From assembly GCA_947478465.1 (NCBI GenBank), contig CANJWH010000010.1:991-64990 (forward strand): DNA of 64,000 bases. Direction: 5' to 3'. Below the pieces are notes generated by a model. That model worked only from the letters and a program-made list of their open reading frames with translations. It did no database searches and was not told the origin of the DNA. The DNA is from Bacteroidota bacterium (lineage in GTDB: Bacteria; Bacteroidota; Bacteroidia; SXHM01). Position 1 is the stretch's first letter, and each line of letters begins with the position of its first letter. A program made the translations under genes and the position numbers. Positions 7,013 through 62,500 of the stretch are shown here, in pieces.

Positions 7013-8308
7013 ATGAATATAATGGCAGCCACCACCACCCGCGAATTAATCGTATCCGAAGTAGCAGAGAACCTAATTGCCAGCGAGATTATAAAAATCG
7101 CCAACGAGGTAAACGAGAAGATTAAGAACGGTGAGAAAATATATAACCTCACTATCGGAGATTTTAACTCCAATATTTTCCCAATCCCTGATGGATTGAA
7201 AGCTGAAATAATAAAAGCTTACGAAAATAATCAGACCAATTATCCGGCAGCCAATGGAATTCCTGAACTGCGCAAATCGGTTTCAAAATATCTGAAACGC
7301 AAAGGGCATTTGGATTATTCTGAAAATCAAATTCTGATTTCTGCTGGAGCTCGTCCATTGATTTATGCGACTTTCACAGCTCTTTTAGACCCGGGTGATA
7401 CAGTAATTTATCCTGTTCCAAGTTGGAATAATAACCACTACACACATCTTTCTTCTTGCAAAAAAGTAGAGATAGAAACCACTGCCGAAAACAAATTCAT
7501 GCCTTCAGCCGCAGATTTAAAACCTCATTTAGCTGATGCCACAGTAGTTGCTCTTTGCTCACCGCTAAACCCAACTGGAACCATGTTCAGCAAAGAAGGG
7601 TTGGAACAAATCTGTGATTTAATTCTGGAAGAAAATGCAAAGCGTGAAGAAGGCAGAAAACCACTTTATCTCATGTATGACCAGATATACTGGGCATTAA
7701 CCATGACCGGTAATAAGCATTATGATCCGGTTAGTTTGCGCCCTGAGATGCGTAACTACACCATTTACATTGATGGAATTTCAAAAGCATTTGCATCAAC
7801 AGGTGTTCGCGTGGGTTGGGCGTTTGGGCCGCAAAAAATAATTGACAAAATGCGCGCATTGCTTTCACACGTTGGTGCCTGGTCGCCAAAAGCAGAACAG
7901 GTTGCAACCTCAGTTTTTCTGGAAAAAGAAAACGAAGTAGATGAATACCTGACCTGGATAAATAAAAATGTTTCTGAACGTTTAGCCGGTTTTTACAACG
8001 GTTTTCAGACATTGAAGAACGAAGGATTTGCAGTAGATTCAATTGCTCCGCAGGGCGCCATGTATCTTACTGTTCAGTTTGCGTTGCATGGCTACAGAAC
8101 TGAAACAGGAAAAACACTTGCTACTACACAAGATATCACCAGCTATTTATTAGATGAGGCTAAAACAGCATTAGTGCCTTTCTATGCTTTTGGCACTTCA
8201 TCAGAATCAAATTGGTATCGCCTTTCCATAGGCACTGTAAAAACCGAGGATATTGAAAAAGTAATTGCACAAATGCGCACTGCGCTTTCTAAATTGAAAA
8301 AAGGGTAA
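7013..8308 (+). CDS. PLP-dependent aminotransferase, class I/II
   Basis: Fold-type I aminotransferase. Lys motif SKAFASTGVRVGW. About 430 aa. Confidence 0.8.
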   Translation: MNIMAATTTRELIVSEVAENLIASEIIKIANEVNEKIKNGEKIYNLTIGDFNSNIFPIPDGLKAEIIKAYENNQTNYPAANGIPELRKSVSKYLKRKGHLDYSENQILISAGARPLIYATFTALLDPGDTVIYPVPSWNNNHYTHLSSCKKVEIETTAENKFMPSAADLKPHLADATVVALCSPLNPTGTMFSKEGLEQICDLILEENAKREEGRKPLYLMYDQIYWALTMTGNKHYDPVSLRPEMRNYTIYIDGISKAFASTGVRVGWAFGPQKIIDKMRALLSHVGAWSPKAEQVATSVFLEKENEVDEYLTWINKNVSERLAGFYNGFQTLKNEGFAVDSIAPQGAMYLTVQFALHGYRTETGKTLATTQDITSYLLDEAKTALVPFYAFGTSSESNWYRLSIGTVKTEDIEKVIAQMRTALSKLKKG

Positions 8309-8344
8309 ACAGTGTAGAGACCGGACGCGAACGTCTTTACAAGA

Positions 8345-9439
8345 ATGGGAATGAAAAATAATTACGTTGTAATAATGGCAGGCGGGGTAGGAACAAGGTT
8401 CTGGCCTATGAGCCGCACTCCGCACCCAAAGCAATTTCTGGATGTGTTGGGAACAGGTAAAACACTAATACAACAGACCTACGATCGTTTTCAAAAAGTT
8501 TGTCCGCCAGAAAATATTTTTGTGGTAACCAATGAAAGTTACCGTGAACTGGTAAAGGAGCAACTACCTGCTCTTACCAGCGAACAAATCATTTGCGAAC
8601 CAAGTCGCAAGAATACTGCTCCCTGTGTAGCTTATGCTGCTTTTCGCCTCAGCTCTATAAACCCTGATGCGAATATGGTGGTGGCCCCTTCAGACCATCT
8701 TATTCTTAATACCGAAGGTTTTGTGAGTGTTATCAATAAAGCACTGGAAACAACGGCAAAGTATAATGTGTTATGTACGCTTGGAATAAAACCTTCGCGC
8801 CCTGATACCGGTTACGGATACATTCAGTTTAACGAACAGGAATTTTTAAACGGAAGTGGCGAGGTAAGAAAAGTAAAAACTTTTACCGAAAAGCCTGACC
8901 TTGATATGGCAAAGCAATTTCTTGCCAGCGGTGATTTTTTATGGAATTCAGGAATTTTTATCTGGTCTGCAAAAAGTATTCTTAGCGCTTTCCGTGACCA
9001 TTCCAGTGAGATGTTTCAGGTTTTTGGCGAAGGAAAAACACTTTACGGAACACCTGGCGAAGAAGCATTTATTAAAAAAGCATATACCGTTTGCAAAAAT
9101 ATTTCCATTGACTATGCCGTAATGGAAAAAGCAAAAAACGTTTACGTTCTGTCTGCAGACATCGGCTGGAGCGACCTCGGGACATGGGGTTCACTCTATG
9201 AATATGCTGATAAAAATTCAGACGGAAATACCATCATCGGAAAAAATGTGGTGGTTTACGATACCAAAAACTGTATTGTTAATGTTCCTAAAGAAAAGTT
9301 AGTTGTATTAGAAGGACTGGAAGACTATATAGTAGTTGAGTCTGACGGAATACTATTGATTTGCCGTAAAACAGAAGAGCAGAAAATCAAGTTGATTGTA
9401 AATGATGTTACAATCTCTAAAGGCGAAAAGTTCGTTTAA
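8345..9439 (+). CDS. mannose-1-phosphate guanylyltransferase
   Basis: MAGGVGTRFWPMSRTPHPKQFL nucleotidyltransferase motif. 364 aa without an isomerase domain, i.e. ManC-type. Confidence 0.85.
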   Translation: MGMKNNYVVIMAGGVGTRFWPMSRTPHPKQFLDVLGTGKTLIQQTYDRFQKVCPPENIFVVTNESYRELVKEQLPALTSEQIICEPSRKNTAPCVAYAAFRLSSINPDANMVVAPSDHLILNTEGFVSVINKALETTAKYNVLCTLGIKPSRPDTGYGYIQFNEQEFLNGSGEVRKVKTFTEKPDLDMAKQFLASGDFLWNSGIFIWSAKSILSAFRDHSSEMFQVFGEGKTLYGTPGEEAFIKKAYTVCKNISIDYAVMEKAKNVYVLSADIGWSDLGTWGSLYEYADKNSDGNTIIGKNVVVYDTKNCIVNVPKEKLVVLEGLEDYIVVESDGILLICRKTEEQKIKLIVNDVTISKGEKFV

Positions 9440-14558: not shown

Positions 14559-14906
14559 TTACTGTTTTGTTGCAGTTTTCCCTAAAAACAACAACTCATT
14601 TACCACAATCTCGGTGATGTATTTTTTCTCACCTTCTTTAGATGTGTAGTTGCGTGAAGTCAGTTTACCTTCAATAGCTACCTCGCTGCCTTTGGTCAGA
14701 TATTTTTGCGCAAGCTCTGCGGTTTTTCCCCAGGCAACCAGATTGTGCCAGCAGGTTTCGGTTACTTTTTCGCCTTTTGCGTTGGTAAAAGTTTCGTTGG
14801 TGGCAAGCGCAATACGTGCTACTTTTTTACCTTTCTCAAATTCTTTCACTTCAGGAGTTGCTCCCAGATTTCCGATTAAGCGTACGCTGTTTCTTAATGT
14901 GTTCAT
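14559..14906 (-). CDS. ssb: single-stranded DNA-binding protein (short form, no acidic tail)
   Basis: OB-fold SSB similarity (RLIGNLGATPEV...WHNLVAWGKTAE). Only 115 aa and ends without a DDDIPF-type tail. Confidence 0.82.
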   Translation of the reverse strand: MNTLRNSVRLIGNLGATPEVKEFEKGKKVARIALATNETFTNAKGEKVTETCWHNLVAWGKTAELAQKYLTKGSEVAIEGKLTSRNYTSKEGEKKYITEIVVNELLFLGKTATKQ

Positions 14907-45218: not shown

Positions 45219-48200
45219 ATGGACTTAGAGGCTGTAAAGAATAGATTTTCGCAACACCCGCGCATCGCTGAATTGGTTAACTCGCTTTCGGCAGGTAATT
45301 CTACGCGCATTCACATCAAAAATCTTGCTGGCTCGTCTTCAGCTTTTGCTGCGGCAACTGTTGTTTCCAAAATTCCGAAAACGCATGTTTTTATCTTGCC
45401 GGGCAAGGAAGAAGCTGCTTATTTTCTGAATGATATTGAAGTGATGCTGGGCAAAGAACAAGTTTTGTTTTTCCCGATGTCGTATCGCAGGCCTTATAGT
45501 GAAGAGGAGAAGACAGACAACAGCAATGTGGTTGAGCGGGCGGAAACGCTTAACAAACTCAATCAGAATTTTGCGCGAGCAGTTGTTACCTATCCTGAAG
45601 CTCTTTCTGAAAAAGTTATCACGAGAAAAGTTTTAGAAAAGAATACGCTGTTGTTGAAAACAGGCGACACTCACGGAATTGATTTTATCACTGATGTGTT
45701 GTATGAATATCATTTTGAGCAGGTGGATTATGTTTTCCTGCCGGGGCAGTTTGCAGTGCGTGGTGGCATTGTAGATATGTTTTCGTTTTCAGGAGAATAT
45801 CCTTTGCGTGTTGAGTTTTTCGGAAACACGATTGAGAGCATCCGCAGCTTTGATCCTTCAACACAATTGTCGGTTGCCAATCTTGTGCGGGCTACTATTC
45901 TTCCTAATGTACAACAAAGCCTGTTGCACGAAAGCCGTGTTTCCTTTTTAGAATTTATTCCTGCTGAAAGTCTGGTGTGGATCACAGATGTAAGAAGTGC
46001 GGTTGCAGTTTTAAATTCAGAACTGGAGGTGGCAAAAGCAGCTTTTGAGAATCTGAAAACTGAAATGAATTATTTACCGCCTGAGGAAAAATACATCAGC
46101 GGAAATTATTTTATAGACAAGTTTAAACAACACAGTATTGTAGAATTAGGACAGGCAGAATATTTTGATGATGTACAAACGATTGAGTTTAATACTTCGC
46201 CACAACCCGCATTCAATAAGAATTTTGAAATGCTGGGCGATCATCTTCGCAAAAATTCTTCGGCCGGTTATCAAAATCTTTTAGCTGCAGAAAATCCCAA
46301 ACAGGCTGAACGCTTGTATTCTATTTTTGAAGACATGCCTGTTAAAGCAGGAGAAAAGAAACCGGTGTTTACACCTTTAGTAGTTTCGATTTCTGAAGGA
46401 TTTACCGACCATGATTTAAAAATATCTTTCTACACCGACCACCAGATTTTTGAGCGTTACCACCGTTTCAAACTGCGTAACGGTTTTGTAAAATCACGTG
46501 AAGCGATTACGCTGAAAGAATTGCATGGATTAAATCCGGGCGACTTTGTTACCCATATAGATCATGGTATCGGGAGATTTGCAGGTCTGGAAAAAATTGA
46601 TGTGAATGGAAAGATGCAGGAGGCTGTGCGACTGGTTTATCGTGACAATGATATATTGTATGTCAGCATTCATTCGCTGCACCGCATTGCAAAATATTCG
46701 GGGAAAGATGGAAATGAGCCAAAGATAAATAAGTTGGGTTCTGGCGCATGGCAAGCGATGAAGTTGAAAACCAAATCAAAGGTTAAAGACATTGCTAAAG
46801 ATTTAATAAAACTGTATGCACAGCGCAGAGCGAAAAAAGGTTTTGAGTTTTCGCAGGATAATTATTTGCAAACTGAACTTGAAGCAAGTTTTATTTATGA
46901 AGATACGCCTGATCAGGTGAAATCAACTGCGGATGTGAAGAAGGACATGGAGCAAAATTTTCCGATGGATAGATTGATATGCGGTGATGTTGGTTTCGGG
47001 AAAACAGAGATTGCAATACGTGCTGCTTTCAAAGCGGTATGCGACAGCAAGCAGGTGGCAGTCCTGGTTCCTACTACAATTCTTGCATTGCAGCATTACA
47101 AAACTTTTAGTGAGCGATTGAAGAATTTTCCGTGTCGTGTTGATTACATCAATCGTTTTAAAACTGCGGGACAACAAAAAGAAACACTTAAAAAATTAGC
47201 TAATGGAGAGATTGATATCATTATTGGCACTCATCGGATTGTAAGTAAAGATGTAAAGTTTAAAGACCTTGGTTTGCTGATTGTAGATGAAGAACAAAAG
47301 TTTGGCGTAGGTGTGAAAGAGAAACTGAAAGCTTTTCGAGTGAATGTAGATACGCTAACGTTAACAGCAACACCAATCCCACGTACGCTGCAGTTTTCGC
47401 TTATGGGAGCGCGGGATTTATCTATAATTAATACAGCACCTCCAAATCGTTTTCCTGTAATTACCGAAGTGCATACGTTTAATGAAGAAGCTATCCGTGA
47501 TGCTATACGCTATGAAATTGACAGGGGTGGGCAAGTGTTTTTTGTAAATAACAGAATTGAAAATATTCGTGAGGTTGCAGGAATGATTTCACGACTTTGT
47601 CCGGATGTGCGGGTTGGTATAGGGCATGGACAATTAGAAGGACATCAACTCGAAGAAGTGATGATGAATTTTATTGAAGGCGCAACAGATGTGCTGGTTG
47701 CCACATCCATCATTGAATCCGGATTAGATATTTCTAATGCTAACACTATCATCATTAATAATGCGCAAAATTTCGGATTAAGTGATTTGCACCAGATGCG
47801 CGGCAGGGTGGGGCGTTCGAACAAAAAAGCATTTTGTTATTTATTGGCTCCGCCAAGCGAAATGCTGAGCACCGAAGCTAAAAAACGTTTACGGGCAATT
47901 GAAGAATTTTCAGAGCTCGGTAGCGGTTTCAATATTGCCATGCGCGATCTGGATATTCGCGGAGCAGGAAATTTATTGGGTGCTGAACAAAGCGGATTTA
48001 TTTCTGACATTGGGTTTGAGATGTATCACAAAATTCTGGACGAGGCGATACAGGAATTGAAATTGGAGTTGGATCAGGAAACTGACATTCAGCAGAAAGA
48101 AAGAAAACCTAATGCAGCAGCACATATTCAGCAACTTTCTTATGTCAGAGATTGTGTGATTGATACCGACTTGGAAATTCTTTTGCCGGATAATTATGTG

Positions 48201-48596
48201 AATAATATCACAGAGCGTCTAGGGCTTTACCGTGAGCTGGATGATATTGAAAACGAAACAAGCTTACAGCTATTCGAAAAAAATATGATTGACCGTTTTG
48301 GTCCGTTTCCAAAGCAGGCAGAAGAATTACTTAACACTATTCGCTTGCGTTGGATTGCGAAAGAAATTGGTTTTGAACGATTGATTTTAAAGAATAAAAA
48401 ACTTACGGGTTATTTTATTTCTTCACCTAACTCAGCGTATTTTCAAAGTGATATTTTTGGTAAGGTGTTGCAGTATGTCCAAACGCACGGCAAGGATTGC
48501 CGCATGACACAAAAAGGGGAGAAGCTGATGTTGAGTTTTGAAAATGTCAACCGAGTAGACGAAGCAATTCGTTGGTTGAAACAGATTCTTGCTTAA
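45219..48596 (+). CDS. mfd: transcription-repair coupling factor
   Basis: 1125 aa. UvrB-homology N-terminus, RecG-like SF2 helicase core (GDVGFGKTE Walker A, DEEQ) and TRCF C-terminal domain. Confidence 0.95.
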   Translation: MDLEAVKNRFSQHPRIAELVNSLSAGNSTRIHIKNLAGSSSAFAAATVVSKIPKTHVFILPGKEEAAYFLNDIEVMLGKEQVLFFPMSYRRPYSEEEKTDNSNVVERAETLNKLNQNFARAVVTYPEALSEKVITRKVLEKNTLLLKTGDTHGIDFITDVLYEYHFEQVDYVFLPGQFAVRGGIVDMFSFSGEYPLRVEFFGNTIESIRSFDPSTQLSVANLVRATILPNVQQSLLHESRVSFLEFIPAESLVWITDVRSAVAVLNSELEVAKAAFENLKTEMNYLPPEEKYISGNYFIDKFKQHSIVELGQAEYFDDVQTIEFNTSPQPAFNKNFEMLGDHLRKNSSAGYQNLLAAENPKQAERLYSIFEDMPVKAGEKKPVFTPLVVSISEGFTDHDLKISFYTDHQIFERYHRFKLRNGFVKSREAITLKELHGLNPGDFVTHIDHGIGRFAGLEKIDVNGKMQEAVRLVYRDNDILYVSIHSLHRIAKYSGKDGNEPKINKLGSGAWQAMKLKTKSKVKDIAKDLIKLYAQRRAKKGFEFSQDNYLQTELEASFIYEDTPDQVKSTADVKKDMEQNFPMDRLICGDVGFGKTEIAIRAAFKAVCDSKQVAVLVPTTILALQHYKTFSERLKNFPCRVDYINRFKTAGQQKETLKKLANGEIDIIIGTHRIVSKDVKFKDLGLLIVDEEQKFGVGVKEKLKAFRVNVDTLTLTATPIPRTLQFSLMGARDLSIINTAPPNRFPVITEVHTFNEEAIRDAIRYEIDRGGQVFFVNNRIENIREVAGMISRLCPDVRVGIGHGQLEGHQLEEVMMNFIEGATDVLVATSIIESGLDISNANTIIINNAQNFGLSDLHQMRGRVGRSNKKAFCYLLAPPSEMLSTEAKKRLRAIEEFSELGSGFNIAMRDLDIRGAGNLLGAEQSGFISDIGFEMYHKILDEAIQELKLELDQETDIQQKERKPNAAAHIQQLSYVRDCVIDTDLEILLPDNYVNNITERLGLYRELDDIENETSLQLFEKNMIDRFGPFPKQAEELLNTIRLRWIAKEIGFERLILKNKKLTGYFISSPNSAYFQSDIFGKVLQYVQTHGKDCRMTQKGEKLMLSFENVNRVDEAIRWLKQILA

Positions 48597-49756
48597 TCTT
48601 TTTTCGAATCAATTATCACAACTGCATCCGCAATCACCTTTGCCATTTTACTCATTGTATCATTGCTGAGGCATTCAATAGTATCTCGTCTGGTGTGGTA
48701 AGTTGGATGAAGCTTGTGCATTGGCAAACCTACTACTGAAACAGCGGGAATTCCATTTCGGGTGAAACTGGATGCATCAGTAGCGCCTATAGGAATCATT
48801 CCTGATTTTTTCTCCAACCCATTTGATTTAAAAGCTTTACCGAGGGTTTCAATCAGGTATTTATCGTGACGGGCAAAAAGGGATAATTCAAAATCAATAA
48901 TATGCATTTCATTTATGTCGAGCATTCCGTCAAGGTTAATAATATGTGTTGCCTTTATTAGTTCATCACGATGCTTTTGCTCATAGGCTTTTGAACCTTT
49001 GAGACCGGTTTCTTCCGAACCGAAAGAAATGATTTTTAAACGTGTATTTTTCAGAACTGATTTTCCATCTTTCAAAAGATTTTGTGCAGCAAAGAAGGCA
49101 ACAGCAACCCCGGAAAGGTTATCCTGTGCGCCATCTACAACTCGTTTTCCGTGAATAAAAAAGAAGCTTAATGAGAAAATGCTGCAAAATGCAAAGCAAT
49201 ACCAACCATAGCTGAGGAAAGGACTAAACCCAAAAACTAGAGATGATAAATAGAAAACAGGAAGTGTTACAAATGCAACTCCGCTAACCAGCATCATACG
49301 GATACCCCAATCGCGAAAATAATACCACCAGATAAATTCGGGAGTACTATCCATGTGTCCTGAAATAATTACGGTTTGTTTCACTTCGCCAACAGGTTCT
49401 ATTGTGCCGATAACATTACGCGAAGTAAGTTTTGGATAAAAAATATCAAGCCAATCTTTATACATCAGAAAATGAAAAAAGAAAACCACAGAATTTACTG
49501 CACTTACTGCAATGGCAAAGTTTACAGACCAAAGCGGTAAGACCAATGAAATATAAAACAGAATGCAGAAAATTTTAAGAGAAGAAAACTTTGCAGTAAG
49601 AGCATCGGTAAATTCTTCGGTTTCTACGGTGTTGCAAATCGGTTTGAGTTGCTCTGAAAAATACTCTTGTGCATTTTTTTCAGCAATACTTCCAGCCCTT
49701 CGCGGACCAAATTTTTGGATAATAGTGGATACTAAATCTAGAGGAGTTTGCAGCAT
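48593..49756 (-). CDS. membrane-anchored M28-family Zn-peptidase
   Basis: Several TM helices plus an M28 catalytic pattern (HMDS, DNLSGVA, GSEETGLKGS). Convergent with mfd and overlaps its stop by 4 nt. Confidence 0.68.
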   Translation of the reverse strand: MLQTPLDLVSTIIQKFGPRRAGSIAEKNAQEYFSEQLKPICNTVETEEFTDALTAKFSSLKIFCILFYISLVLPLWSVNFAIAVSAVNSVVFFFHFLMYKDWLDIFYPKLTSRNVIGTIEPVGEVKQTVIISGHMDSTPEFIWWYYFRDWGIRMMLVSGVAFVTLPVFYLSSLVFGFSPFLSYGWYCFAFCSIFSLSFFFIHGKRVVDGAQDNLSGVAVAFFAAQNLLKDGKSVLKNTRLKIISFGSEETGLKGSKAYEQKHRDELIKATHIINLDGMLDINEMHIIDFELSLFARHDKYLIETLGKAFKSNGLEKKSGMIPIGATDASSFTRNGIPAVSVVGLPMHKLHPTYHTRRDTIECLSNDTMSKMAKVIADAVVIIDSKKD

Positions 49757-49911
49757 GAAATAATTTTATGATCGGTTTTGTTTCAAAAGTAAAATAAAAA
49801 AGACTCCGCACGCTTTGCGCTTTCACCTGAGATCTCAAAACTTTACGTCCCTTTGCGCAATCCCGCTCTTAACATTGGTTAATTTGCAATCAACCTTTCT
49901 GTCCCTATAAT

Positions 49912-50040
49912 TACCCTAACTCACCGTATTTTCAAAGTGATGCTTTTGGGAAGGTACTTAATTATGTGCAAACACACGGTAAAGATTGCCGCATGACCCA
50001 GAAAGGGGATAAGCTGATGCTGAGTTTTGAGAATGTGGTT
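49912..50040 (+). pseudogene. orphan, divergent duplicate of the mfd 3' end (gene fragment)
   Basis: About 85% nucleotide identity to 48432-48557. Keeps the reading frame (PNSPYFQSDAFGKVLNYVQTHGKDCRMTQKGDKLMLSFENV) but has no upstream gene body and a different tail. Confidence 0.75.
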
Positions 50041-50134
50041 ACGGTCGGGGGTGGGATTAAGTGGTTGGGTGGGATTTTGTCACCCTGAGCATAGTCGAAG
50101 GGCTTTATTATAAGCAAAGCCAACATCCCAACCT

Positions 50135-51817
50135 TCATTGCCTTGCAGTTTTAATACGAAAACAAGTCAAACACCAAGTATTACCATGCTTTATTGAAAC
50201 AGGTGTTGCCCACCATTGATGACCCTCTTTGCATTGCCATAAAAGTTTTGTACTGCTATTTTTATATTCTTTTGATAAGCATAGTCCTTGATTTCTTATG
50301 GCAAGGTGCTGCATTTCCTCTATCGTAAGTTTTTTCAATTTTGAACATTCAGGACACCAACATTTAGCATGAATAATTGATACTGGTGGTGATTGAAATT
50401 GATGGCCCTCTTTACATTCCCAAATAAGTTTAGTGCTAAGGTTTATATACTTTTCTGATAAACATTTCCCACCTCTCAATTTTGCAAGCTCCTGCATTTG
50501 CTCAATTGTCTTCTTTTCAGAACCACTACACTTTAAACACCAACTCTCATTATTTTTTACATTATTAGGAGATGCAAACCATCTGTGTCCTTTTTTGCAT
50601 TCCCATTCTAAATTTCCCTCACTCCCCTTATATTCATTTGAAATAAGCTTTCCTCCTCTTTGTTGAGCAATTCCATTTAACATTGTAATTGCTGAAAAAC
50701 TCTTCTTAAATTCATCAAACGAAATCTCTTCCGGCTTTCTTATAATTTGAACTTCTACTCTCTCCAGCTCTTTTACTATCCACCCGACTAAACCGTCTTT
50801 AATTTTATTAGCAAAGTCTGGAATAAGTATGATTTTAATTCCTTTCTCCCTGCATAATTTTTCTTTTAGACTATCGCGTTTTTGCGCTTCTGATAACGTA
50901 TATTTTTCCGAGTGAAAAAATTTTATCTCTTCAAAGTGCTGAGCACCATTGTACTCAAATGCTAAATTATATTCCTTTGAGTAACCATCTAATTCTAATC
51001 TATTTCCAAGAACTTGTCTTGTTTTTTTGAATTCTGTTTGTAACAAATATTCTAAAATGAATCTGCATTTTTCTTCTGTATAATACCATCTACATTGCGG
51101 ACACCATTGTCCACTGTTCATTATACTTGCTGAAATCATTTCAAATGTATGTCCGTCTGCACATTTCCATTCTAGTTTTGTTCGGCTGTTTACATACGCT
51201 GTTGATAGTAATTCCCCACCTCTCGATTTAGCAATCTCTTGTAACTCTTTAATTGTTGGCTTTGCCTTTCCAGAACATTTTGGACACCATACATTATTGC
51301 CTTTAATATCATGTGCAGTTGCTAAAAAATTATGCCCTTTTTCACATAGCCAAGATAGTTTTTCTTTATTGTGATTATATCTTTCAGATAAACATTGACC
51401 TCCTTTTGTCTTAGCATATTCTTTCATTTCCTCTATGGTCAGTTTTTTTGTTCCACCACATTCGTGACACCAATGTTTAGCATTAATTATTGAACTAGGT
51501 GTTGCAAACCATTCATGCCCTTTATCGCATTGCCAATGAAGAGTTGAATTAATATTCTTATAAGATATTGATAGACATTTCCCCCCTCTTGATTTTGCAA
51601 TTTCTTGCATTTTTTCAAGAGTATATTTTCTTTTTCCTGAGCAATCAGGACACCAATGCCCATATTTTATTGAGTGGTATAAAGCAGTCCATTTGTGCCC
51701 TTTTGCACATTGCCATTCAAGTTTATTATTGCTGTTTTTGAATTCTAATGACAAGCATTTTCCCTCTCGCAGCTTTGCAAGTTCTTGTGCCTTATTAATC
51801 GATAATTCAGATCGCAT
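50135..51817 (-). CDS. multi-zinc-ribbon repeat protein with central DUF559/Vsr-like (PD-(D/E)xK-type) nuclease-like domain
   Basis: Seven tandem roughly 50-aa modules, consensus T[IL]EEMQE[IL]AKxRGGKCLSxxYKNxxxKLxWxCxKGHxWxAxPxSIxxxxxWCPxCSG, four N-terminal and three C-terminal. They flank a core with ELDGYS...LAFEYNGAQH...KRD..L...GIKIILIP resembling DUF559 endonuclease-like domains. Confidence 0.6.
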   Translation of the reverse strand: MRSELSINKAQELAKLREGKCLSLEFKNSNNKLEWQCAKGHKWTALYHSIKYGHWCPDCSGKRKYTLEKMQEIAKSRGGKCLSISYKNINSTLHWQCDKGHEWFATPSSIINAKHWCHECGGTKKLTIEEMKEYAKTKGGQCLSERYNHNKEKLSWLCEKGHNFLATAHDIKGNNVWCPKCSGKAKPTIKELQEIAKSRGGELLSTAYVNSRTKLEWKCADGHTFEMISASIMNSGQWCPQCRWYYTEEKCRFILEYLLQTEFKKTRQVLGNRLELDGYSKEYNLAFEYNGAQHFEEIKFFHSEKYTLSEAQKRDSLKEKLCREKGIKIILIPDFANKIKDGLVGWIVKELERVEVQIIRKPEEISFDEFKKSFSAITMLNGIAQQRGGKLISNEYKGSEGNLEWECKKGHRWFASPNNVKNNESWCLKCSGSEKKTIEQMQELAKLRGGKCLSEKYINLSTKLIWECKEGHQFQSPPVSIIHAKCWCPECSKLKKLTIEEMQHLAIRNQGLCLSKEYKNSSTKLLWQCKEGHQWWATPVSIKHGNTWCLTCFRIKTARQ

Positions 51818-51949
51818 TTTTTTGTTTGATAAAACAAACCTAAAAACTTTCCCGCATCTTCACTAAACGCAATTTCCAATTGCGCTTAGAACACAAGATA
51901 ATTTGCAACTAAGCGAAGCGATCTCACCGAAGGTAATTATCTTTTCAAC

Positions 51950-52400
51950 GTATGTCCATTCCATTTCCAAAACTCCTGCCTTCCTCTGTGCCTCCTCATT
52001 CTAACTCTGTGTAACTTCTCCTCTCCGGTTAAAAAATCCATTTCACATCCCCATTTTCCCTGTCATCCGTGTCCCATTTCCCTTCCCCACACATAAAACA
52101 CCCCATTTCACGCAAAGAAACTGCCATTTAATGCTAAACAATTAACATTTTATGTGTATCAATTAACAGTAACTTCTAATCAATTAACGCTTAATTCGTA
52201 AAAATTAATAGTAAATGTGTATCAATTAATAGTAACTTCTAATTTAATAATACTAAATTCTAATCAATTACCACTTCATTCTAATATATTAACAATAAAT
52301 GTGAACAAATTACCACTAACTTCTAATCAATTACCAATTAATGTGTATTAATTAACTATAATTGCTCCTCAATTAACACTTCAAGCTCCGAAATTGAGAG
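51950..52400. repeat. iteron-like direct-repeat arrays in a divergent intergenic region
   Basis: Five CCATTTC(A/C)C repeats at 51955-52110. A further 8-10 AATCAATTA(A/C)C / AACTTCTAAT repeats, including three roughly 40-bp copies of aatgtgtatcaattaacagtaacttctaatcaattaac, lie at 52130-52380. Confidence 0.7.
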
Positions 52401-52478
52401 CGCAGGTAAAATAAATCCCAGCGCAAGTCAAAAAATCCAGCCTCTAACCTCCAACTTCTAACCTCTAACTTCCAAAAA

Positions 52479-52850
52479 ATGGCAAACCGCTCCTACACAT
52501 CCAACCTCTTCTTAAACATAGAACATGTCTGCGCAGTAAGAAACATTGACCGGCCTTTCACCTTCCTGCGCAAGCACGGTTTTACCCACAACACCGCCTC
52601 ACAGCTTGTCAACAATGAAGTAAAAGAAATCAACCTCGCCTACATCGAGAAGCTCTGCCTCATTTTCAATTGCACCCCCAACGATTTATTTGATTACTCC
52701 CCTTCTAAAGACGCTGCACAAACAAACAACAACCCGCTCATTGCAATTATAAAAACCCGGAAGCCCGTAAACTTCAACGAGCTTCTCCGCGACATGCCCC
52801 TCGATCAGCTCAAAGAAATAGAAGAAGAAATTCGTAAGCGGAAAGCCTGA
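52479..52850 (+). CDS. XRE-family helix-turn-helix transcriptional regulator
   Basis: HTH_XRE-like segment FLRKHGFTHNTASQLVNNEVKEINLAYIEKLCLIFNCTPNDLFDY. Confidence 0.62.
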   Translation: MANRSYTSNLFLNIEHVCAVRNIDRPFTFLRKHGFTHNTASQLVNNEVKEINLAYIEKLCLIFNCTPNDLFDYSPSKDAAQTNNNPLIAIIKTRKPVNFNELLRDMPLDQLKEIEEEIRKRKA

Positions 52851-52890: not shown

Positions 52891-53133
52891 ATGAATATTC
52901 AGGTAAGAAAATTAAACTTTATTGAGGAGCTTTTAAGAGTAAGTGATGAGAAAATAATTTCAAAATTAGAAGCGTATCTTAAAGAGGAAAAAAAGAAAAG
53001 TTATGAGAAGGAATTAAAGCCAATGGCTCATAAAGATTTTTATGCAATGATTGACCAGTCGTTAAAAGACAGTAAAGAAGGAAGAGTAACTTCCAATACT
53101 GATTTGAAGAAGAAAATAAAAACGTGGAAATAA
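52891..53133 (+). CDS. putative antitoxin of a type II toxin-antitoxin pair
   Basis: 80-aa charged protein overlapping the downstream toxin gene by 10 nt. Assigned from position and size only. Confidence 0.45.
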   Translation: MNIQVRKLNFIEELLRVSDEKIISKLEAYLKEEKKKSYEKELKPMAHKDFYAMIDQSLKDSKEGRVTSNTDLKKKIKTWK

Positions 53134-53438
53134 AAATATTCTGGTCTGCACTTGCAGAGGATCAATTAAAAAACATTTTTGATTATTATAAAGAAGTTGC
53201 AGGAGAACGAATAGCTAAACGGATAATAAATCAAATTGCGGAACGGGTTACTATCCTTGAAAAAAATCCCAGAGCTGGGCAAAAAGAAGAATTACTGAAA
53301 GAATACTCGGAAGAATTTCGCTACCTCGTAGAATCAAATTACAAAATCATTTACTGGATCAACAGCAATATCATTACTATTTCATCTGTATTTGATTGCC
53401 AGCAAAATCCGGAAAAAATGAAGGAGTTGAAAAAATAG
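53124..53438 (+). CDS. RelE/ParE-family type II toxin
   Basis: 104 aa with an IFWSALAEDQL...YYKE N-terminus and a FRYLVESNYKIIYWINSNIITISSVFDCQQNP C-terminal pattern typical of ParE/RelE toxins. Confidence 0.68.
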   Translation: MEIKIFWSALAEDQLKNIFDYYKEVAGERIAKRIINQIAERVTILEKNPRAGQKEELLKEYSEEFRYLVESNYKIIYWINSNIITISSVFDCQQNPEKMKELKK

Positions 53439-53474: not shown

Positions 53475-53508
53475 CAAAAAAGTCCCGCATTGCTACAGGA
53501 CTTTTTTT
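53475..53508. terminator. weak bidirectional terminator-like hairpin
   Basis: aaaaaagtcccgcattgctacaggacttttttt sits between convergent genes. Confidence 0.45.
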
Positions 53509-53550
53509 GTGTCTGCCTTCTCGCAAAAAACAGACGCGGGATTGAAAATC

Positions 53551-56500
53551 TTATTGCAGAACCGTTACATTTCCTGTATTGCTAAATCTTCCGTCTTCGT
53601 GTTCCATGCCTTCCCATTGTGTTCCATCCATAAAGGTTGCATCTGCTTTCCAGATATAAGCACCCTGTGGAACAACCACACCATTGTATCTTCCATCCCA
53701 GCTTTCAACAGGTTTGCCATCAATTAACTTACTCGATTCCCAGAGCAGGTTACCCCATTTATCAAATATCATACAGTGGTAAGTTGCTACACCAATACCT
53801 TTTGGCAGGAAGTATCCGAAGTCGCCATCACCACCAACAATCAATGCATTAGGCATAAACAATCCTTTGAAAAGTTCCACTTCAACAGTTTGAGTAATGG
53901 TATCTGAACATCCTGCACCGCTGTAAGCAATCAGTGTTACATCAAACTCACCGTTGTCTGAATAATTGTTTATCGGATCTGTAAGTGTTGATGTTTGTCC
54001 GTCACCAAAATCCCAATCGTACGTTGTTGCACCTGTTGAAAGGTTGGTGAACTGAATTTGTCCGTCAGGGTCAACTACATTGAAATAATCGGAAGTGAAA
54101 TCTGCTACCGGGGTTTGCAACACTGTTACAGCAGAAGTGAGTTCGAGTGTATCGTTACAGATGCCGCCTCCACTTACTACCAATGTTACATCGTATGTTC
54201 CGGGAATTTCATAAGTGTGTGAAGGGTTGCTGAGCATTGAAGTATCACCATCACCAAAGCTCCAGTAGTAGGTAACACCGTCAACTGAATTGTTTGTGAA
54301 GGTCACCGTGTAAGGAGCACAACCTGAGTTTCCGCTCAACGCGAACGATGCAGTAGGTGCAGGATAAACATTGTAAACGTAATCCGAAGTATCTATGCAA
54401 CCACTTGCAGAAGTTGCAGTCAACACAACTGTATAAGTTCCGGTAGTATCAAAACTTGCTTGTCCGTTAGTAGTTGTTGCATTAGTTCCGTTTCCGAAGT
54501 TCCATGAATATGAAACAGCATTTGTTGAAGTATTAGTAAAATCAACTGTTACCGGATAAGTGCAGGAGTAAGTATTTGTAGAAGGCACTGTGAATGCAGC
54601 TACCGGAGGTGCGCTGATTGTTACGGTTACACTGTCCTGAGTTCCTACACAACCAAGTCCATCAGTTACAGTTACTACATACGTTGTAGGTACCGAAGGC
54701 AATACGATGTGCGAAGCTCCGTTTCCAAGACCATTGTTCCAGCTGTAAGTGTACACACCATTACCGCCTGTTGCGGTTGCAGAAATAGTAATACTGTCCC
54801 CTGCACAAACTACGTTTCCGATGCTGTTTATGTCAGCAACCAATTGTGCCGGCTGACCTATTGTAATTGTTTGCGAAGCAGCGCATCCATTTGCATCTGT
54901 AGCTATCACTATGTAAATTCCTGCAGAAAGACCTGTTGCTGTTGAAGTTGTATTATTACTTGGTGTCCAGTCGTAAGAGTAAGGAGTTGTTCCGCCAGTT
55001 ACAAGAACAGTTGCTGTTCCGTTTACTCCACCAAAGCAGGTAGGTTGTGAACTTCCTATTAAAGAAATTGCCATGTTACCCGGAGCAGAGATGGTAACGG
55101 TTGTGCTGTCTGAACATCCTGCGGCATCAGTTACAATAACTGTATGGCTTCCTGAAGTAAGGTTGGTAGCAGTAGCAGTTGTTTGTCCGTTATCCCAAGC
55201 GTAGTGGTAAGTTGGTGTTCCACCCACAACAGCAACAGTTGCAATACCAGTTGCAGAACCACCGCATGCAGGCTGTACAATGTTTGAAATAGTTAAATCA
55301 AGTGCAGCAGGTTCGCTCACAGTAAATGAAAGTTGAAGTGCGCAACCAGTAGAGTCGGTAATATTTACTGAATAGTCACCTGCCAGAAGATTTGTTGCTG
55401 GAACTGTAGTTTGTCCGTTACTCCAAGCATAAGTATATGGAGTATTTCCACCGGCAATGTTAAAGCTGATGCTTCCATTGTTTTCACCATTGCAGGTTAC
55501 ATTGTTTACATCCACATCTCCGGCTGAAAGAACTGCATTTTCGGTAATTACAAAGTTTACAATGGTGATACATTGATTGGCATCACGGATAGTGACAGAG
55601 TGCAATCCGGCCGGCAAATCTGAAACAGTTTGAGTTGTTTGACCATTATCCCAAACGTAGGTATAGCCCGGAATACCACCTGAAACGTTTATAGAAGCCG
55701 ATCCTGTAGCGCCACCTGCACAACCAACATTTACCTGGTTTTCAATAAACGCAGACATTGGTGAAGGCTGTGTGATGACTAAACTTAAAGAAGTATCGCA
55801 ACCACTTGCATCAGTAATCTGAACAGAGTATTCACCTGCGCCAACACCATTCAAATCATGAGTGGTTGCACCGTTAGACCATAAGAAAGTATATGGAGCA
55901 GTTCCGCCAATTACATTAATGAAGCCAGCGCCATTGCTTCCTCCGTTGCAAGTTACATTTAGTATATCAAGAATTGTTGCAGTTAAACTTGGTGGCTCTG
56001 TAATGTCAGCAAAAACAGTTTGTGAGCAACCATTTGCATCAACAACTGTTACCTGATGAATTCCAAATGCAAGACCTGTTGCAGTTTGTGTTGTTTGCCC
56101 GTTGGCCCATGAATAAGTGTAAGGAGCTACTCCACCGGTTACGTTTACTGTTGCAGATCCGTTGGCAACTCCTGCGCAGCTTACAGAAGAAGTATTCTCG
56201 ATAACTGCAGTTAATTGCGTAGGATTAACAACCTGAATAGTGTCAGTTGAAGAACAGCCATTAGCATCTGCTGCAGTTACAATATAAGTTCCTGCGAAAA
56301 GATTAGAAGCAACCGAGCCGGTTTGTCCGTTGCTCCAAAGGTAAGTGTAAGGAGCTGTTCCTCCTGAAGGAGTTGCTGTAGCAACACCGTTTCCGGCACC
56401 AAAGCAACTAACATCTTCACTATTGAAATCAGAAGTTACATCAGCACTTACTGTGAGAGTAATAGGGTTAACAATTCCAGCTTGAGTAGTTGTTGTGCAG

Positions 56501-59500
56501 TTGTTAGCATCTGTAACTGTTACATCATAAATACCCTCGGCAAGATTAGTTGCAGTTGCATTTGTTTGTCCGTTCACCCACAAATAAGTGTAAGGAGCAG
56601 TTCCGCCAGTAACAGAAACTGTAGCACTTCCATTGTTATTTCCATTGCATGAAGGCTGAGTAGTTGATGAAATTGTAGCAACCAGTTGCTCTGGCTCATT
56701 CACCACAATGTTTATAGTAGTATCACAACCCAGAGAATCAGCTAATGTGATTGAATATGTTCCTGCAATTAATCCGGAAATATCTTCTGTTGTAGAACCG
56801 TTACTCCAGGAGTATGAGTAAGGAGCAGTTCCACCGGAAGGTGTGATGTCAATAGCTCCGTCATTTCCTCCATTGCAACTTACATCGCTTACAGCAATAT
56901 TATTAGAAGGAATTGCAAGAGGTTGAGGTTCGCCAACTATAACAGTTAAGATTACATTGCATCCGTTGGTATCTGAAACTGTAACGGTATAAGTTCCGGC
57001 AGCAAGACCTGTTGCTGTAGAACCTGTTTGTGTATTTGACCAAAAGTAGAAATATCCCGGAGTTCCACCAGCGGCCTGAACTGTTGCGCTTCCGTTTGCA
57101 ACACCGTTGCATGAAGGTGTAACAATTGAAACAACATCTGCAGTTAAAACCATAGGATCAACTAGTGTTACAGAAACGGTGGTGTCGCAACCGTTAGCAT
57201 CTGTAGAAGTTACAAAGTATGTTCCGGCAGCTAAGTCGGTTGCAAAATAATCTGTTGAACCGTTAGACCATTGGTAAGTGTATCCGGGGGTTCCGCCATT
57301 TACTAAAACTTCTGCCATACCATCAGCATCGCCTGCGCATGATATGTCCGTTCCGTTATAGTCTGAAGTAACTGTAGCGTATGCAATAAGTGGATTAGGT
57401 TCACCAATAAGTACGTTTGTTGATGCAATGCATCCGTTGTTATCGGTTACACTTACAAAGTAAACACCTGCACTTAGGTTTGTAGCAGTAGATGAAGTTT
57501 GTCCATCACTCCACAAATATTGGTATCCGCTTGCACCTCCGGTAGCGTCAACTGTTGCATAACCATCTGCTAAACCACTGCAGCTTACATTATGTTGGTC
57601 TATTAGATTTACTTCCAACAATTCAGGTTCTGTTAAAGTAATGCTGTCATTAATTGAGCATCCGTTTATATCAGTAATGGTTACATAATATGTTCCTGCA
57701 AAAACAAATACCAGATTTTCGTCAGTTGAAGTAAAACCGTTTGGTCCTGTCCATGCATAATTGTAATCAGCACAATCTGCACCACCACTTAAAGCAAGAT
57801 TGATGCTGCCATTATTAGTATTTGCGCAGTTTATGTTCCAGCCTCCTGCATTTACTGGGCTTGTCAGACTATCAACTGTAAGCGGTGTTGGTTCTGTTAA
57901 TGTAATTGAAGTTGTTGCAGTATTTCCAAGCCCATCTGTAACGGTTACGGAATATGTAGTTGCAGAAAGACCGGTAGCAACTTGTGAAGTTTGTCCGTTG
58001 CTCCATAAGTAAGAATAAGGCATGCATCCACCGGCAGGCAATGCGGTTGCAGTTCCATTATTTCCTCCCGGACAAGTAATATTAAATCCACAGCTAAATG
58101 TATCAGCAACTGCAGAAACTAACAAAGGATTTGCAAGAACAGTTATGTCAAATGAACAGGTTGTTGTATTTCCTGAAGCATCAATTGCTGTGTATGTTAC
58201 AGTTGTTGTTCCAACAGGGAAGCTGTTTCCTGACTGGAAGTTACTGGTCAATGAGGTAACCGCACAGTTGTCAGTAGCAATTGGCGTATTCCATGTAGCA
58301 TAAGGATTGCAATTTGAACTGTCAGGTTGAATTACAATATCAGCAGGACACAAGGTAAATTCAGGTGCAATGTTATCCACTACCGTTATAGTTGAGAAAC
58401 AATTGTCTGAATTTCCATTCACATCCGTAACAGTAAGTGTTACCAGATTTTCGCCAACATTTCCGCAGTTGAAAGATGAAACAGAAATTATCATTGTATC
58501 AATTCCGCATGCATCAGTTGAGCCGTTATCAATTTGTGCAGCGGTGATTGAAATTACTCCATTAGAGTCAAGAGCAACAGTAATATTTTGACAAATTGCA
58601 TTAGGATTGGTTGCATCGACAACTGTAACAGTTGAAGAGCAGGTAGCAACATTTCCGTTGAGGTCAGTAACAGTTAAAGTAACAGTATTAGAGCCAACAT
58701 TTGAGCAGTCAAATGTATTTGGAGAAACTGTCATTGAAGCAATTCCGCATGCGTCTGAAGAACCGTTATCAACCTGTGAAGAAACGATTGAAATATTTCC
58801 TGTTCCGTCTAAATCAATTGTAATATCGCGGCAGATTGCAATTGGATCAACATTATCCTGCACTGTTACAGTTGATATACAGGTTGAAACATTTCCATTA
58901 ACATCAGTCACAGTTAATGTTACAGAATTAGTTCCTATACCAGCGCAAGTAAAGGTGTTAGGGTTCACAGTCATTGTTGCAATTCCGCAGTTGTCAGATG
59001 AACCATTATTTACCTGTGAAGAATCGATTGTTACCTGTCCGTTTGCATCCAACTGAACCGTGATGTCTTGACAAATTGCAATCGGATCTATCTCGTCATT
59101 AATAGTAACTGTTGCTGTGCAAGAAGAAGAGTTTCCGAAAGCGTCTGTAACAGTTAAAGTCACAGTATTTGCACCAACGTTTGAGCAATCAAAATTGGTT
59201 TCACTTACGCTGTATGTTAAGCCATTGTTAGGAGTTGAGCAGTTGTCGAACGAACCATTGTCAACCTCAACAGCAGTAATAACAGCGTTTCCGTTTGCAT
59301 CTAACTGTACTGTTATGTTTTGACAAATAACAGTTGGTGAAACAGTATCGGTAATTGTAACAACAGCATCGCATGAAGAAGAATTTCCGTTAGCATCAGT
59401 TACGGTTAATGTTACTGTGTTGGCTCCGATGTTTGAGCAATCAAAATTAGTTTGACTTGCAGTGTAAATTAAGCCTGAACCTGAATTAGAGCAGTTGTCA

Positions 59501-62500
59501 GTAGTTCCGTTATCTAAGTCAATACCAGTTATAACAACGTTTCCGTTTGCATCCAAAGCAACCGTAATATTCTGACAAACGATAGTTGGATTAATGGTAT
59601 CCTGAACAGTTACAACAGCTGTGCAGGTTGAAATATTTCCGGAGTTATCGGTAGCAGTTAATGTTACAGTATTAGTTCCAACATTTGAACAATCAAATGC
59701 AGAAGGCGAAACAGTAAGTGAAGCAATTCCGCAGGCAGCGTTTGTTCCGCCATCAACTTGTGCAGCTGTAATAATTACGTTTCCGGTTGCATCTAATTGA
59801 ACCGTGATGTCCTGGCAAACTGCAGCAGGCGCAACATTATTCTCAACTGTAACAATGGCTGTGCAGGTTGAAGAATTTCCGTATGCATCTGTAACAGTTA
59901 AGATAACTGTATTAATACCTTCATCTGTGCAATCAAATGTTGTTTGACTTGCTGTGAATGTTAATCCTGAATTGATGTCCGAACAATTATCTGTTGAACC
60001 ACCATCAATATCAATTGCACTGATTGTAACGTTTCCATTTGCATCTAACTGAACGGTAATATTCTGACAGATTGCAACAGGAGAAACAGTATCAGAAACC
60101 GTAACTATTGCATCGCATGAAGATGAATTTCCATAAGCATCAGTTACTGTTAAAGTAATTGTATTTGCACCGATGTTTGAACAATCAAATGAAGTTTGAC
60201 TTGCGCTGAATGTTAATCCTGAGCCCGAAGTTGAGCAGTTATCACTTGAACCGTTGTCAATGTCAGTAGCAACAGTTACTACATTTCCGTTTGCATCTAA
60301 CTGAACTATGATGTTCTGACAGATTACTGTTGGGTTTGTGTCATCCTGAATTGTTACTGTTGCACTGCACGTAGAAGAATTTCCATTGTTATCAGTTACA
60401 GTTAATGTTACCGTGTTTGCACCAATATTTGAGCAATCAAATGCTGAAGGAGAAACTGTCATTGAAGCAATTCCGCATGCATCAGAAGAATTGTTGTTTA
60501 CCTGAGCAGCAGTGATAACAGCATTTCCATTTGCATCTAAGTTTACAGTTATGTTCTGACAAATTGCAATTGGAGCCGTGTTATCCTGAACAGTAACGAT
60601 TGCTGTGCAGGTAGAAATATTTCCATGATTATCGGTTACAGTTAAAGTAACAGTGTTAGTTCCAACATTTGAACACGTGAATGATGAAGGAGAAACTGAA
60701 AGCGAAGCAATTCCGCATGCATCTGAAGAACCATTGTCAATTTGTGCTGCTGTGATAGAAGCAATACCCGCAGCGTTCAGTTGAACAGTGATATTCTGAC
60801 ATTGAGCAATCGGAGCAACATGATCCTGAATAGTAACAATAGCTGAGCAGGTTGCTGTGTTTCCGCTTTGGTCAGTAACAGTTAAGGTTACAGTATTTGC
60901 TCCTATGTTAGAGCAATTAAATGAAGAAGGATTAACACTTAATGTAACTGGTCCGCACTGGTCGCCTGAACCGTTATCAACCTGTGCCGCAGTAATGGTT
61001 GCATTCCCGTTTGCATCCAGTTGAACAGTAATGTTACGACAAAGTGCAATAGGAGGGTTGTTGTCTAAAACAGTAACAGTTGCTGTGCATGTGCTTTGAT
61101 TTCCGTTGTTATCAATTACTGTTAATGTTACTGTATTTGCACCAACATTCGCACAAGTAAATGTTGAAGGCGAAACACTCATTGCAGCAATCCCACAGTT
61201 GTCAAAAGAACCTCCATCCACATCAACAGGAAGAATGGAAATATTTCCGGTTGCATCTAACTGAACAGTTATGTTCTGACAGATTGCAGTTGGAGGTGTG
61301 CTTGCATTATCCTGTACTGTTATTGTTGCTGTGCAGGTAGAAACATTTCCGTTTACATCAGTAACAGTAAGTGTTACTGTATTTGCGCCAACATTTAAAC
61401 AGTTGAAAGTAATTTGCGGCTGTCCGTTAATAGCGATGGAAGCAATTCCGCAATTATCATTTGAACCATTATTGATTTGCGCAGCTGTTACAATTACAGA
61501 ACCTGTTTGGTCTAACTGAACAGTTATGTTCTGACAGATTGCAATAGGATCTACATTATCCTCAACCGTAACCGTAGCAGTGCATGAAGAAACATTTCCG
61601 TTTACATCTGTAACTGTTAATGTAACTGTATTTACTCCAACGTTTGCACAGCTGAAAGCAACCTGTTTTTGACCATTAATGGTTGATGAACCAATTCCGC
61701 ATGCATCGCTGGAAGCACCGGTAACCTGCGAATCTGTAACAATAACAATTCCATTTGAATCAAGTTCAACAATTATATTCTGACAAATGACTACAGGTGC
61801 AATTGTATCTTCAACAGTAACATTTGCAAGGCATGTAGAACTGTTTCCGCTAAGGTCGGTAACAGTTAAAGTAACCGTGTTAAGTCCAACATTTGAACAA
61901 TTAAATGTATTAGGAGAAACCGAAAGAGATGCAATTCCGCAATTATCAAAAGAACCGCCATCAACATCTGCAGCAACAATAGAAGCATTTCCTGTAGCAT
62001 CAAGCTGCACAGTTATATTCTGACAGATAGCTGTAGGTGGTGTGCTTGTATTATCAACAACTGTAATAGTTGCATTGCAGGTAGAAGTATTTCCATTCAC
62101 ATCAGTAACAGTAAGTGTTACTGTATTTGCACCAACATTTAAACAGTTGAAAGTAATTTGCGGTTGTCCGTTAATAGCGATGGAAGCAATTCCGCAATTA
62201 TCATTTGAACCATTATTGATTTGCGCAGCTGTTACAATTACAGAACCTGTTTGGTCTAACTGAACAGTTATGTTCTGACATATTGCATTCGGGTTAATAT
62301 TGTCTTGAACAGTTACAGTAGCATTACAAGTAGAAACATTTCCGTTTATATCTGTTACAGTAAGTGTTACCGTATTAGCTCCAACATTTGCACAGGTAAA
62401 CGTGTTTGGCGAAACGGATATGGATGCAATACCGCACGCATCTGAGCTTCCGTTGTTAACCTGTGCTGCTGCTACTGAAGCATTACCACCTGCGTTTAAC

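Follow-up and report, generated by a model that had tools for sequence, protein, structure and literature searches.

[quoted passage not shown] 2017, PMC5361080); for rhs, the displacement of C-terminal regions via circular intermediates has also been put forward (Jackson et al. 2009, PMC2935791). Homology-facilitated illegitimate recombination itself was originally reported from bacteria capable of natural transformation (see the summary in PMC3240628). The locus considered here, at the 3' end of mfd, resembles the orphan tips of the rhs, CDI and T6SS systems in having a conserved body with a variable 3' end that moves together with the cargo behind it, an old end pushed downstream as a promoterless fragment together with a piece of the core, and no dedicated recombinase. 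On the other hand, mfd is a housekeeping DNA-repair gene and its tip, unlike the tips of those systems, is not a toxin domain but 16 weakly constrained codons for the last Mfd helix; there is no immunity gene, the next gene being a convergent one for a zinc-finger protein, the orphan is single instead of part of an array, and no sign of selected displacement was seen.

Homology-facilitated illegitimate recombination combines a homologous anchor on one side with an illegitimate joint on the other, and places foreign DNA beside retained resident DNA. The mfd locus is alike in these respects, with one flank homologous and collinear and a novel junction opposite to it, but here such a process is proposed from sequence, and the similarity found at the joint is no greater than chance. 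The third system to be compared is that of the islands inserted by integrases in the 3' ends of protein-coding and tRNA genes, in which, as here, the gene remains whole and its duplicated 3' end flanks the added DNA. Unlike the attL and attR sites of such islands, the repeats at mfd are accompanied by neither an integrase nor an identical att core, and the gene lying between them is probably an ancestral one.

The window, i.e. the whole 64-kb stretch of DNA that was analysed, was compared with relatives from uncultured freshwater Bacteroidia (designated by L numbers; L001-3 stands for L001, L002 and L003), whose background nucleotide identity to it is 82-90%. The features of the interval between mfd and the following adhesin gene are, in order:

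45219-48596, plus strand: intact mfd, transcription-repair coupling factor of 1125 aa (Pfam TRCF, CarD_TRCF_RID, UvrB_inter, DEAD and Helicase_C).
48426-48548, plus strand: core A, the copy of the repeat inside mfd (codons 1070-1110), agreeing with 49915-50037 at 104 of 123 positions.
48549-48596, plus strand: A-type mfd terminus, NRVDEAIRWLKQILA and stop, the stop codon overlapping that of the M28 gene by 4 nt.
48593-49756, minus strand: gene of an M28-family membrane peptidase, convergent with mfd (Pfam Peptidase_M28, E=1e-25).
49757-49802, no strand: 46 nt upstream of the M28 gene, ending in AAAAAAG, 91% identical to L001-3, where the adhesin terminator follows directly.
49803-49914, no strand: spacer R' of 112 nt, with a 22-nt motif at 49888-49909 and a sigma-70-like match at 49884-49911.
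49915-50037, plus strand: orphan core (core B), encoding the clade-consensus peptide PNSPYFQSDAFGKVLNYVQTHGKDCRMTQKGDKLMLSFENV.
50038-50088, plus strand: B-type terminus of the orphan with its own stop, VTVGGGIKWLGGILSP, 87.5% identical to the mfd end of L126.
50079-50103, plus strand: short dispersed repeat GTCACCCTGAGCATAGTCGAAGGGC, within which the orphan stop codon falls.
50135-51817, minus strand: accessory gene of a multi-zinc-finger protein of 560 aa with DUF4379 repeats and a CapR domain (Pfam).
51956-52850, plus strand: array of 21-nt repeats and HTH_26 gene; T2 genomes (see below) typically have this module, which is 85-95% identical in L006 and 80% in L126.
52891-53438, plus strand: antitoxin and ParE-type toxin pair (Pfam ParE_toxin), found in the window strain only.
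53476-53550, no strand: adhesin terminator region, 82-88% identical to L001-3, L005, L006 and L126, where the collinearity with T1 and T2 relatives returns.

The earlier note on this DNA had paired a segment inside mfd, 48432-48557, with a copy at 49912-50037, at about 15% mismatches, and had taken the copy for the last 42 codons or so of the gene. Precise alignment reproduced the similarity far above chance and set it in another register: at an offset of 1489 the two cores pair without gaps (84.6% identity), against 53/123 for the runner-up ungapped match of the 123-mer on both strands of the whole window, and MAFFT and a repeat search (family D3) recovered the same pair independently. The copy coordinates and the peptide read from the copy were right, whereas the mfd coordinates were 9 nt off register; the offset of 1480 that they imply gives 27% identity, which is chance level, and was dropped. 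The extent had been set too short as well. The reading frame goes on for 16 codons past the core, up to a stop codon at 50086-50088, and since this tail is in frame and resembles the mfd ends of relatives, the orphan spans 49915-50088, that is the last 57 codons and the stop. It measures 174 bases, 123 nt of core and 51 nt of tip, and lies on the strand of mfd, 1.3 kb past the intact gene, with the two copies 1.5 kb apart. The tails, VTVGGGIKWLGGILSP in the orphan and NRVDEAIRWLKQILA in the resident gene, are only 42% identical, yet the hydrophobic pattern is kept.

Upstream of 49915 the similarity drops sharply, to 19% over the preceding 83 nt; the 1069 codons 5' of the core are missing from the orphan, and an in-frame stop is present at 49870-49872. 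The helicase, RID and UvrB-homology modules are thus confined to the resident gene, which is a complete Mfd and scores 966 bits against the NCBIfam equivalog TIGR00580, whose cutoff is 800. The orphan itself is homologous to the C-terminal domain of Mfd (D7), with a core 94-95% identical to those of intact genes and a tail 87.5% identical to that of the intact L126 gene.

As the earlier note had supposed, several lines of evidence indicate that this fragment once formed the functional 3' terminus of mfd in a related allele and is not a locally duplicated piece in decay. By Nei-Gojobori counting, cores A and B differ by 12 synonymous and 7 non-synonymous substitutions (dS 0.85, dN 0.074, dN/dS 0.088, P=3e-5 against neutrality), and between the orphan core and the nearest intact mfd genes there are 6-7 synonymous differences against one non-synonymous (dN/dS ~0.03). 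The check proposed in the earlier note also came out as expected, the fragment matching the mfd of other strains better than that of its own chromosome: the core is 94-95% identical in nucleotides to the intact genes of L001-3, L005 and L082, and 84.6% to the resident copy. Its 41-residue peptide coincides exactly with the consensus of related Mfd proteins, and it is the resident core that carries three private-looking substitutions (I, Q and E). Moreover, the Gly-rich type of terminus found in the orphan closes intact mfd genes in L004, L005, L006, L082, L126 and L127; it reads …GIKWLGGILSP and stop in the orphan, …GIKWLGGLLSP and stop in the intact gene of L126, and is 71-75% identical in nucleotides to the ends of L004, L005 and L082 (75% in L005). 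Judging from this pattern of substitutions, the orphan is a sequence that evolved as a working gene end.

The position of the two copies, on the same strand and 1.5 kb from each other, is what would be expected of a tandem duplication of the mfd tail that diverged in place, and could also raise the suspicion of an assembly artefact. Neither origin is credible to any appreciable degree: a dS of 0.85 with a dN/dS of 0.088 cannot come from a dead copy, a local duplicate would not be nearer to the genes of other strains than to its own parent, and several samples yielded the structure in independent assemblies. A template and variable repeat pair of the DGR kind was considered and rejected, with only 4/19 core mismatches being A in the mfd copy and 4/19 being A in the orphan; this reading also fails for the absence of a reverse transcriptase from the mfd-adhesin interval.

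The relatives fall into two haplotypes of the mfd-adhesin interval. In the first, T1, mfd has an A-type end and is followed by the convergent M28 gene overlapping its stop, 46 nt, and the adhesin terminator and gene, with one tail. This is the commonest arrangement and is found in L001-3, in 24+ contigs carrying the M28 allele P0241, and in the divergent L128 and L083. In the second, T2, represented by L004, L005, L006, L082, L126 and L127, mfd has the Gly-rich B-type end, the M28 gene is missing, and a variable islet, which often holds the array of 21-nt repeats and the HTH_26 gene, precedes the adhesin gene. Among the genomes examined the A-type end goes strictly with M28 and the B-type end strictly without it. 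The outgroups (Mfd identity of 66% at most) have no M28 gene near mfd, and in one more distant relative M28 is elsewhere in the genome. Within this clade the pairing of mfd with M28 is probably ancestral, because the most divergent members, L128 and L083, are T1 and the arrangement is the commonest.

The variability of the gene end is sharply localised. Over the last 16 codons the mean pairwise nucleotide identity is 58%, against 83-92% over the rest of mfd, and the A-type terminus of the window is 85% identical to the mfd ends of L001-3. The resident core is 80-91% identical to those of relatives, with L126 the nearest (91%), and so lies within the background of the locus. All four combinations of core and terminus occur among the mfd genes compared; L126, in particular, joins a resident-like core (91%) to an orphan-like end (87.5%). 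The core as such is conserved to an ordinary degree (86-91%, against 83-92% across mfd) and has no Rfam match, and the idea of a specially conserved DNA site, either att or RNA, was set aside. Across the whole gene only 7 differences between T1 and T2 are fixed, and at these the window strain has mixed states; the gene has been scrambled by recombination and does not separate donor from recipient. A T1-like character of mfd 48001-48425 was also considered and abandoned, the segment being in reality L001-like, and L002 and L003, which are T1 too, grouping there with T2.

Two other peculiarities of the gene were observed. At 48066-48125 a hypervariable stretch rich in indels (mean pairwise identity 52% among close relatives) lies between well-conserved segments, and the length differences there give Mfd proteins of 1125-1139 aa. 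The short dispersed repeat, whose consensus is GTCACCCTGAGCrTAGTCGAArGGC, is found at 3574, 12993 and 15645 in L126, where one of the copies is at the mfd stop, at 14102 in L004 and at 13436 in L006; in the orphan as well as in the intact mfd of L126 the last two codons and the stop (…SP and stop) come from this repeat, and in the latter a repeat element has thus remodelled the end of a housekeeping protein.

The window strain belongs to neither haplotype but has both of them stacked, an arrangement that we call T3: mfd with its A-type end, M28, the 46 nt, spacer R', the orphan B-type tail, the short repeat, the zinc-finger gene, the HTH module, the toxin-antitoxin pair, the terminator and the adhesin gene. 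Collinearity is T1-like up to 49802 and T2-like from 49915 on, where the T2 part starts inside mfd, at codon 1070. The left flank is nearest to the T1 genome L002 (94-95%), the HTH module is 95% identical to that of L006, and over the adhesin segment 54501-55700 the identity is 76-82% with T2 genomes but 72% with T1. Two mfd tails are present in the T3 strain only, all other relatives examined having one. Of the earlier proposal that recombination had replaced or displaced the original gene end, the replacement has to be given up, as the resident end is still in place and two alleles of the locus are stacked. Likewise, of the two candidates named for newly acquired DNA, M28 falls away, belonging as it does to the commonest arrangement and to the most divergent members; the islet, on the contrary, goes with the orphan and is of the type of the alternative haplotype that lacks M28.

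The T3 structure is not an assembly artefact, because several assemblies span both copies: it is reproduced at 99.99-100% identity in contigs of at least three further assemblies (L130, L131 and L133), in addition to L129. T1 and T3 contigs were found together in one sample, ERZ27280172. Two mosaic contigs were treated with more caution. L081 agrees with L001 at ~100% as far as 47621 and with the window at 100% from 47681 on, and L129 has an L001-like tract of 1 kb that ends at the place of the L081 switch; both switches share one 59-nt stretch (47622-47680) over which the L001 and window strains do not differ, and a single project is the source of both contigs. A strain-chimeric metagenome assembly is at least as likely here as a real, very recent recombination within mfd, and for this reason L081 and L129 were not counted as evidence that an L001-like genome had received the whole block. 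As a side observation, the orphan of L081 (13577-13640 of that contig) differs from that of the window at 50001, 50004, 50031 and 50064, with the other ~2.9 kb identical; all four differences are purine-to-pyrimidine changes at third codon positions, all are non-synonymous, and errors of sequencing or assembly, or else a local cluster of mutations, could account for them.

How the two haplotypes came to be stacked can be judged from the structure of the locus. We consider it likely that the orphan at 49915-50088 represents a 3' end, now non-functional, that was displaced from a second, T2-type mfd allele; it would stand at the joint of the stacked haplotypes, left there by one-sided recombination. 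In such an event DNA would pass between co-occurring strains, and one end of the incoming DNA would recombine homologously, either on the adhesin/HTH side or in mfd, while the other end would join illegitimately at 49914/49915, by homology-facilitated illegitimate recombination. There would be a single novel joint, with a T1-type chromosome on its left and a T2-type segment, beginning inside mfd, on its right, whichever of the two was the donor; the outcome would be an intact mfd with the A-type end, the M28 gene kept, the zinc-finger gene added and a dead B-type tail left behind. The joint between R' and the core was seen in the T3 strain only. Similarity across 49914/49915 is patchy and not above chance (255-468 of 1000 shuffles do as well). 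The parents that this course of events predicts, a T2 strain with the zinc-finger gene directly after mfd and a T1 strain carrying the R' spacer, were not found, and exact-protein look-ups with the HTH, ParE, M28 and zinc-finger proteins returned the same T3 strain or plain T1 only.

Neither the relatives nor the rest of the window contain a match to the spacer R', with the exception of its 22-nt motif, AATCAACCTTTCTGTCCCTATA, which matches L006 at 14885-14906, 12 nt to the left of the HTH module of that genome, with a score reached by 0 of 1000 shuffles. This hints that R' may once have abutted an HTH module. A broader homology between R' and the region R (51818-51955), as boundary elements of cassettes, was discarded, as 87/1000 shuffles make it not significant and the 22-nt motif alone holds.

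The geometry of the locus is equally well described by the circular intermediate known from the rhs model, in which a circle made of the mfd core, the A-type end, M28, the 46 nt and R' would enter a T2-type mfd by a single homologous crossover in the 123-nt core, pushing the B-type end downstream. In fact, the structure is exactly that of a 1489-nt insertion between direct copies of the core, the L126 chimera (core 91%, end 87.5%) has the make-up predicted for the recipient, or for what a reverse deletion would yield, core and terminus occur in all four combinations, and the model is a published one (PMC2935791). Nevertheless, we rank it second and regard it as rather unlikely, because M28 is not a mobile cassette, its pairing with mfd being common and probably ancestral, and because the repeats are poor crossover substrates, with a longest perfect run of 17 nt at 85% overall identity. 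A circle would, besides, still require the unexplained illegitimate joint between R' and the core, and no circle or episomal copy was seen.

Direct repeats of a gene 3' end around inserted DNA are also the classic signature of an integrase island, and the mfd-adhesin interval is clearly a hotspot at which cassettes are swapped, so that the two tails could be read as attL and attR of an islet integrated site-specifically at the mfd end. We assign to this reading a very small probability, since no recombinase is present, identity between the repeats (84.6% overall) extends over 17 nt at most, the conservation of the core is ordinary and the gene between the repeats, M28 alone, is the ancestral neighbour. 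No integrase, transposase or recombinase was recognised in any ORF from mfd to the adhesin gene, nor at the end of the presumed element. A literature search for mfd as a known site of island integration gave nothing relevant. The islet has no phage or viral affinity either, and on the plasmid side only distant Zn-ribbon genes on Bacillus plasmids were retrieved.

The content of the islet deserves a brief description. The zinc-finger protein consists of DUF4379 treble-clef zinc fingers encoded by six 183-nt repeats, together with the CapR-homology domain; it has no close homologue beyond the strain of the window itself, the next best being 64% identical, and its family is scattered across phyla, with members on Bacillus plasmids, in archaea and in others. 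PADLOC gave no match to a defence system in the islet, this protein included. The HTH module, which is missing from T1 genomes and inverted beside mfd in L005, includes at 52098-52418 a 21-nt unit (consensus near TCTAATCAATTAACAGTAACT) repeated ~13-15 times in tandem, directly upstream of the Cro/C1-type HTH_26 gene (52479-52850); from its sequence the array looks like an iteron or operator array. The slot of the ParE pair is taken in L126 by a PIN_3 pair. More generally, the toxin-antitoxin pairs around mfd (ParE/RelE-type, PIN_3, Unstab_antitox) differ among relatives in type and in the intergenic slot that they occupy (52891-53438 in the window, 8102-8605 and 15718-16349 in L126, 2898-3401 in L127, 7884-8413 in L128), and such small cassettes seem to come and go throughout the mfd neighbourhood. 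The adhesin-like gene that closes the interval (53551-63861, minus strand) encodes a repetitive protein of 3436 aa, with SprB, HYR, PKD and CHU_C domains in the annotation of relatives; it diverges much faster than its flanks (72-86% nucleotide identity), and its length varies among relatives, some of which exceed 4800-6600 aa.

It may be asked whether the fragment has been kept because it does something, as a small Mfd-D7 peptide, as an antisense or regulatory RNA, or as a stored tip that recombination could re-attach. The frame is intact, the core shows no non-synonymous decay save one difference at its first codon, chimeric genes of the L126 type exist, and a sigma-70-like promoter match, TTGCAA-16-TATAAT (10/12), lies directly upstream at 49884-49911, over the conserved 22-nt motif, and points into the orphan. 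This last is a match to a consensus only, and the promoter consensus of Bacteroidota is normally a different one. On the other side, the orphan has no in-frame ATG, the sole in-frame start being a GTG that would give 40 aa, the public gene calls of the same strain show no gene there, there is no Rfam match, and the orphan occurs in one strain only; 171 nt are, moreover, too short for the absence of decay to mean much. A stored tip could not act as a switch, as deletion between direct repeats is irreversible. We infer that the fragment has no function, and hold the opposite to be very improbable. The orphan appears to be a harmless scar of the one-sided recombination that we favour.

A bolder reading of the locus would be that the last 16 codons of mfd are part of an exchangeable cassette, that the 3' core of the gene is the recurrent left homology anchor of a swapping hotspot that works with no recombinase, and that orphan tails are intermediates, which would be resolved by repeat-mediated deletion of M28 into chimeras like that of L126. 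We offer it as a speculation that is probably wrong; if true, a C-terminal displacement of the rhs kind would act on a core DNA-repair gene.

There is nothing mechanistically unprecedented in the event described, whose scar is of an ordinary and already familiar type, and what is known of Mfd function is unchanged by it. For annotation it calls for some caution, as the fragment might be mistaken for a small gene, and as the final residues of Mfd vary with the neighbour haplotype of the strain. In this freshwater Bacteroidia population the interval after mfd is a hotspot for the shuffling of modules that carry peptidase, zinc-finger, regulator and toxin-antitoxin genes. The orphan tail indicates that at least one event at this hotspot stacked two alleles instead of swapping them cleanly, and it stands as a dated footprint of the entry of accessory genes into a chromosome without the machinery of a mobile element.
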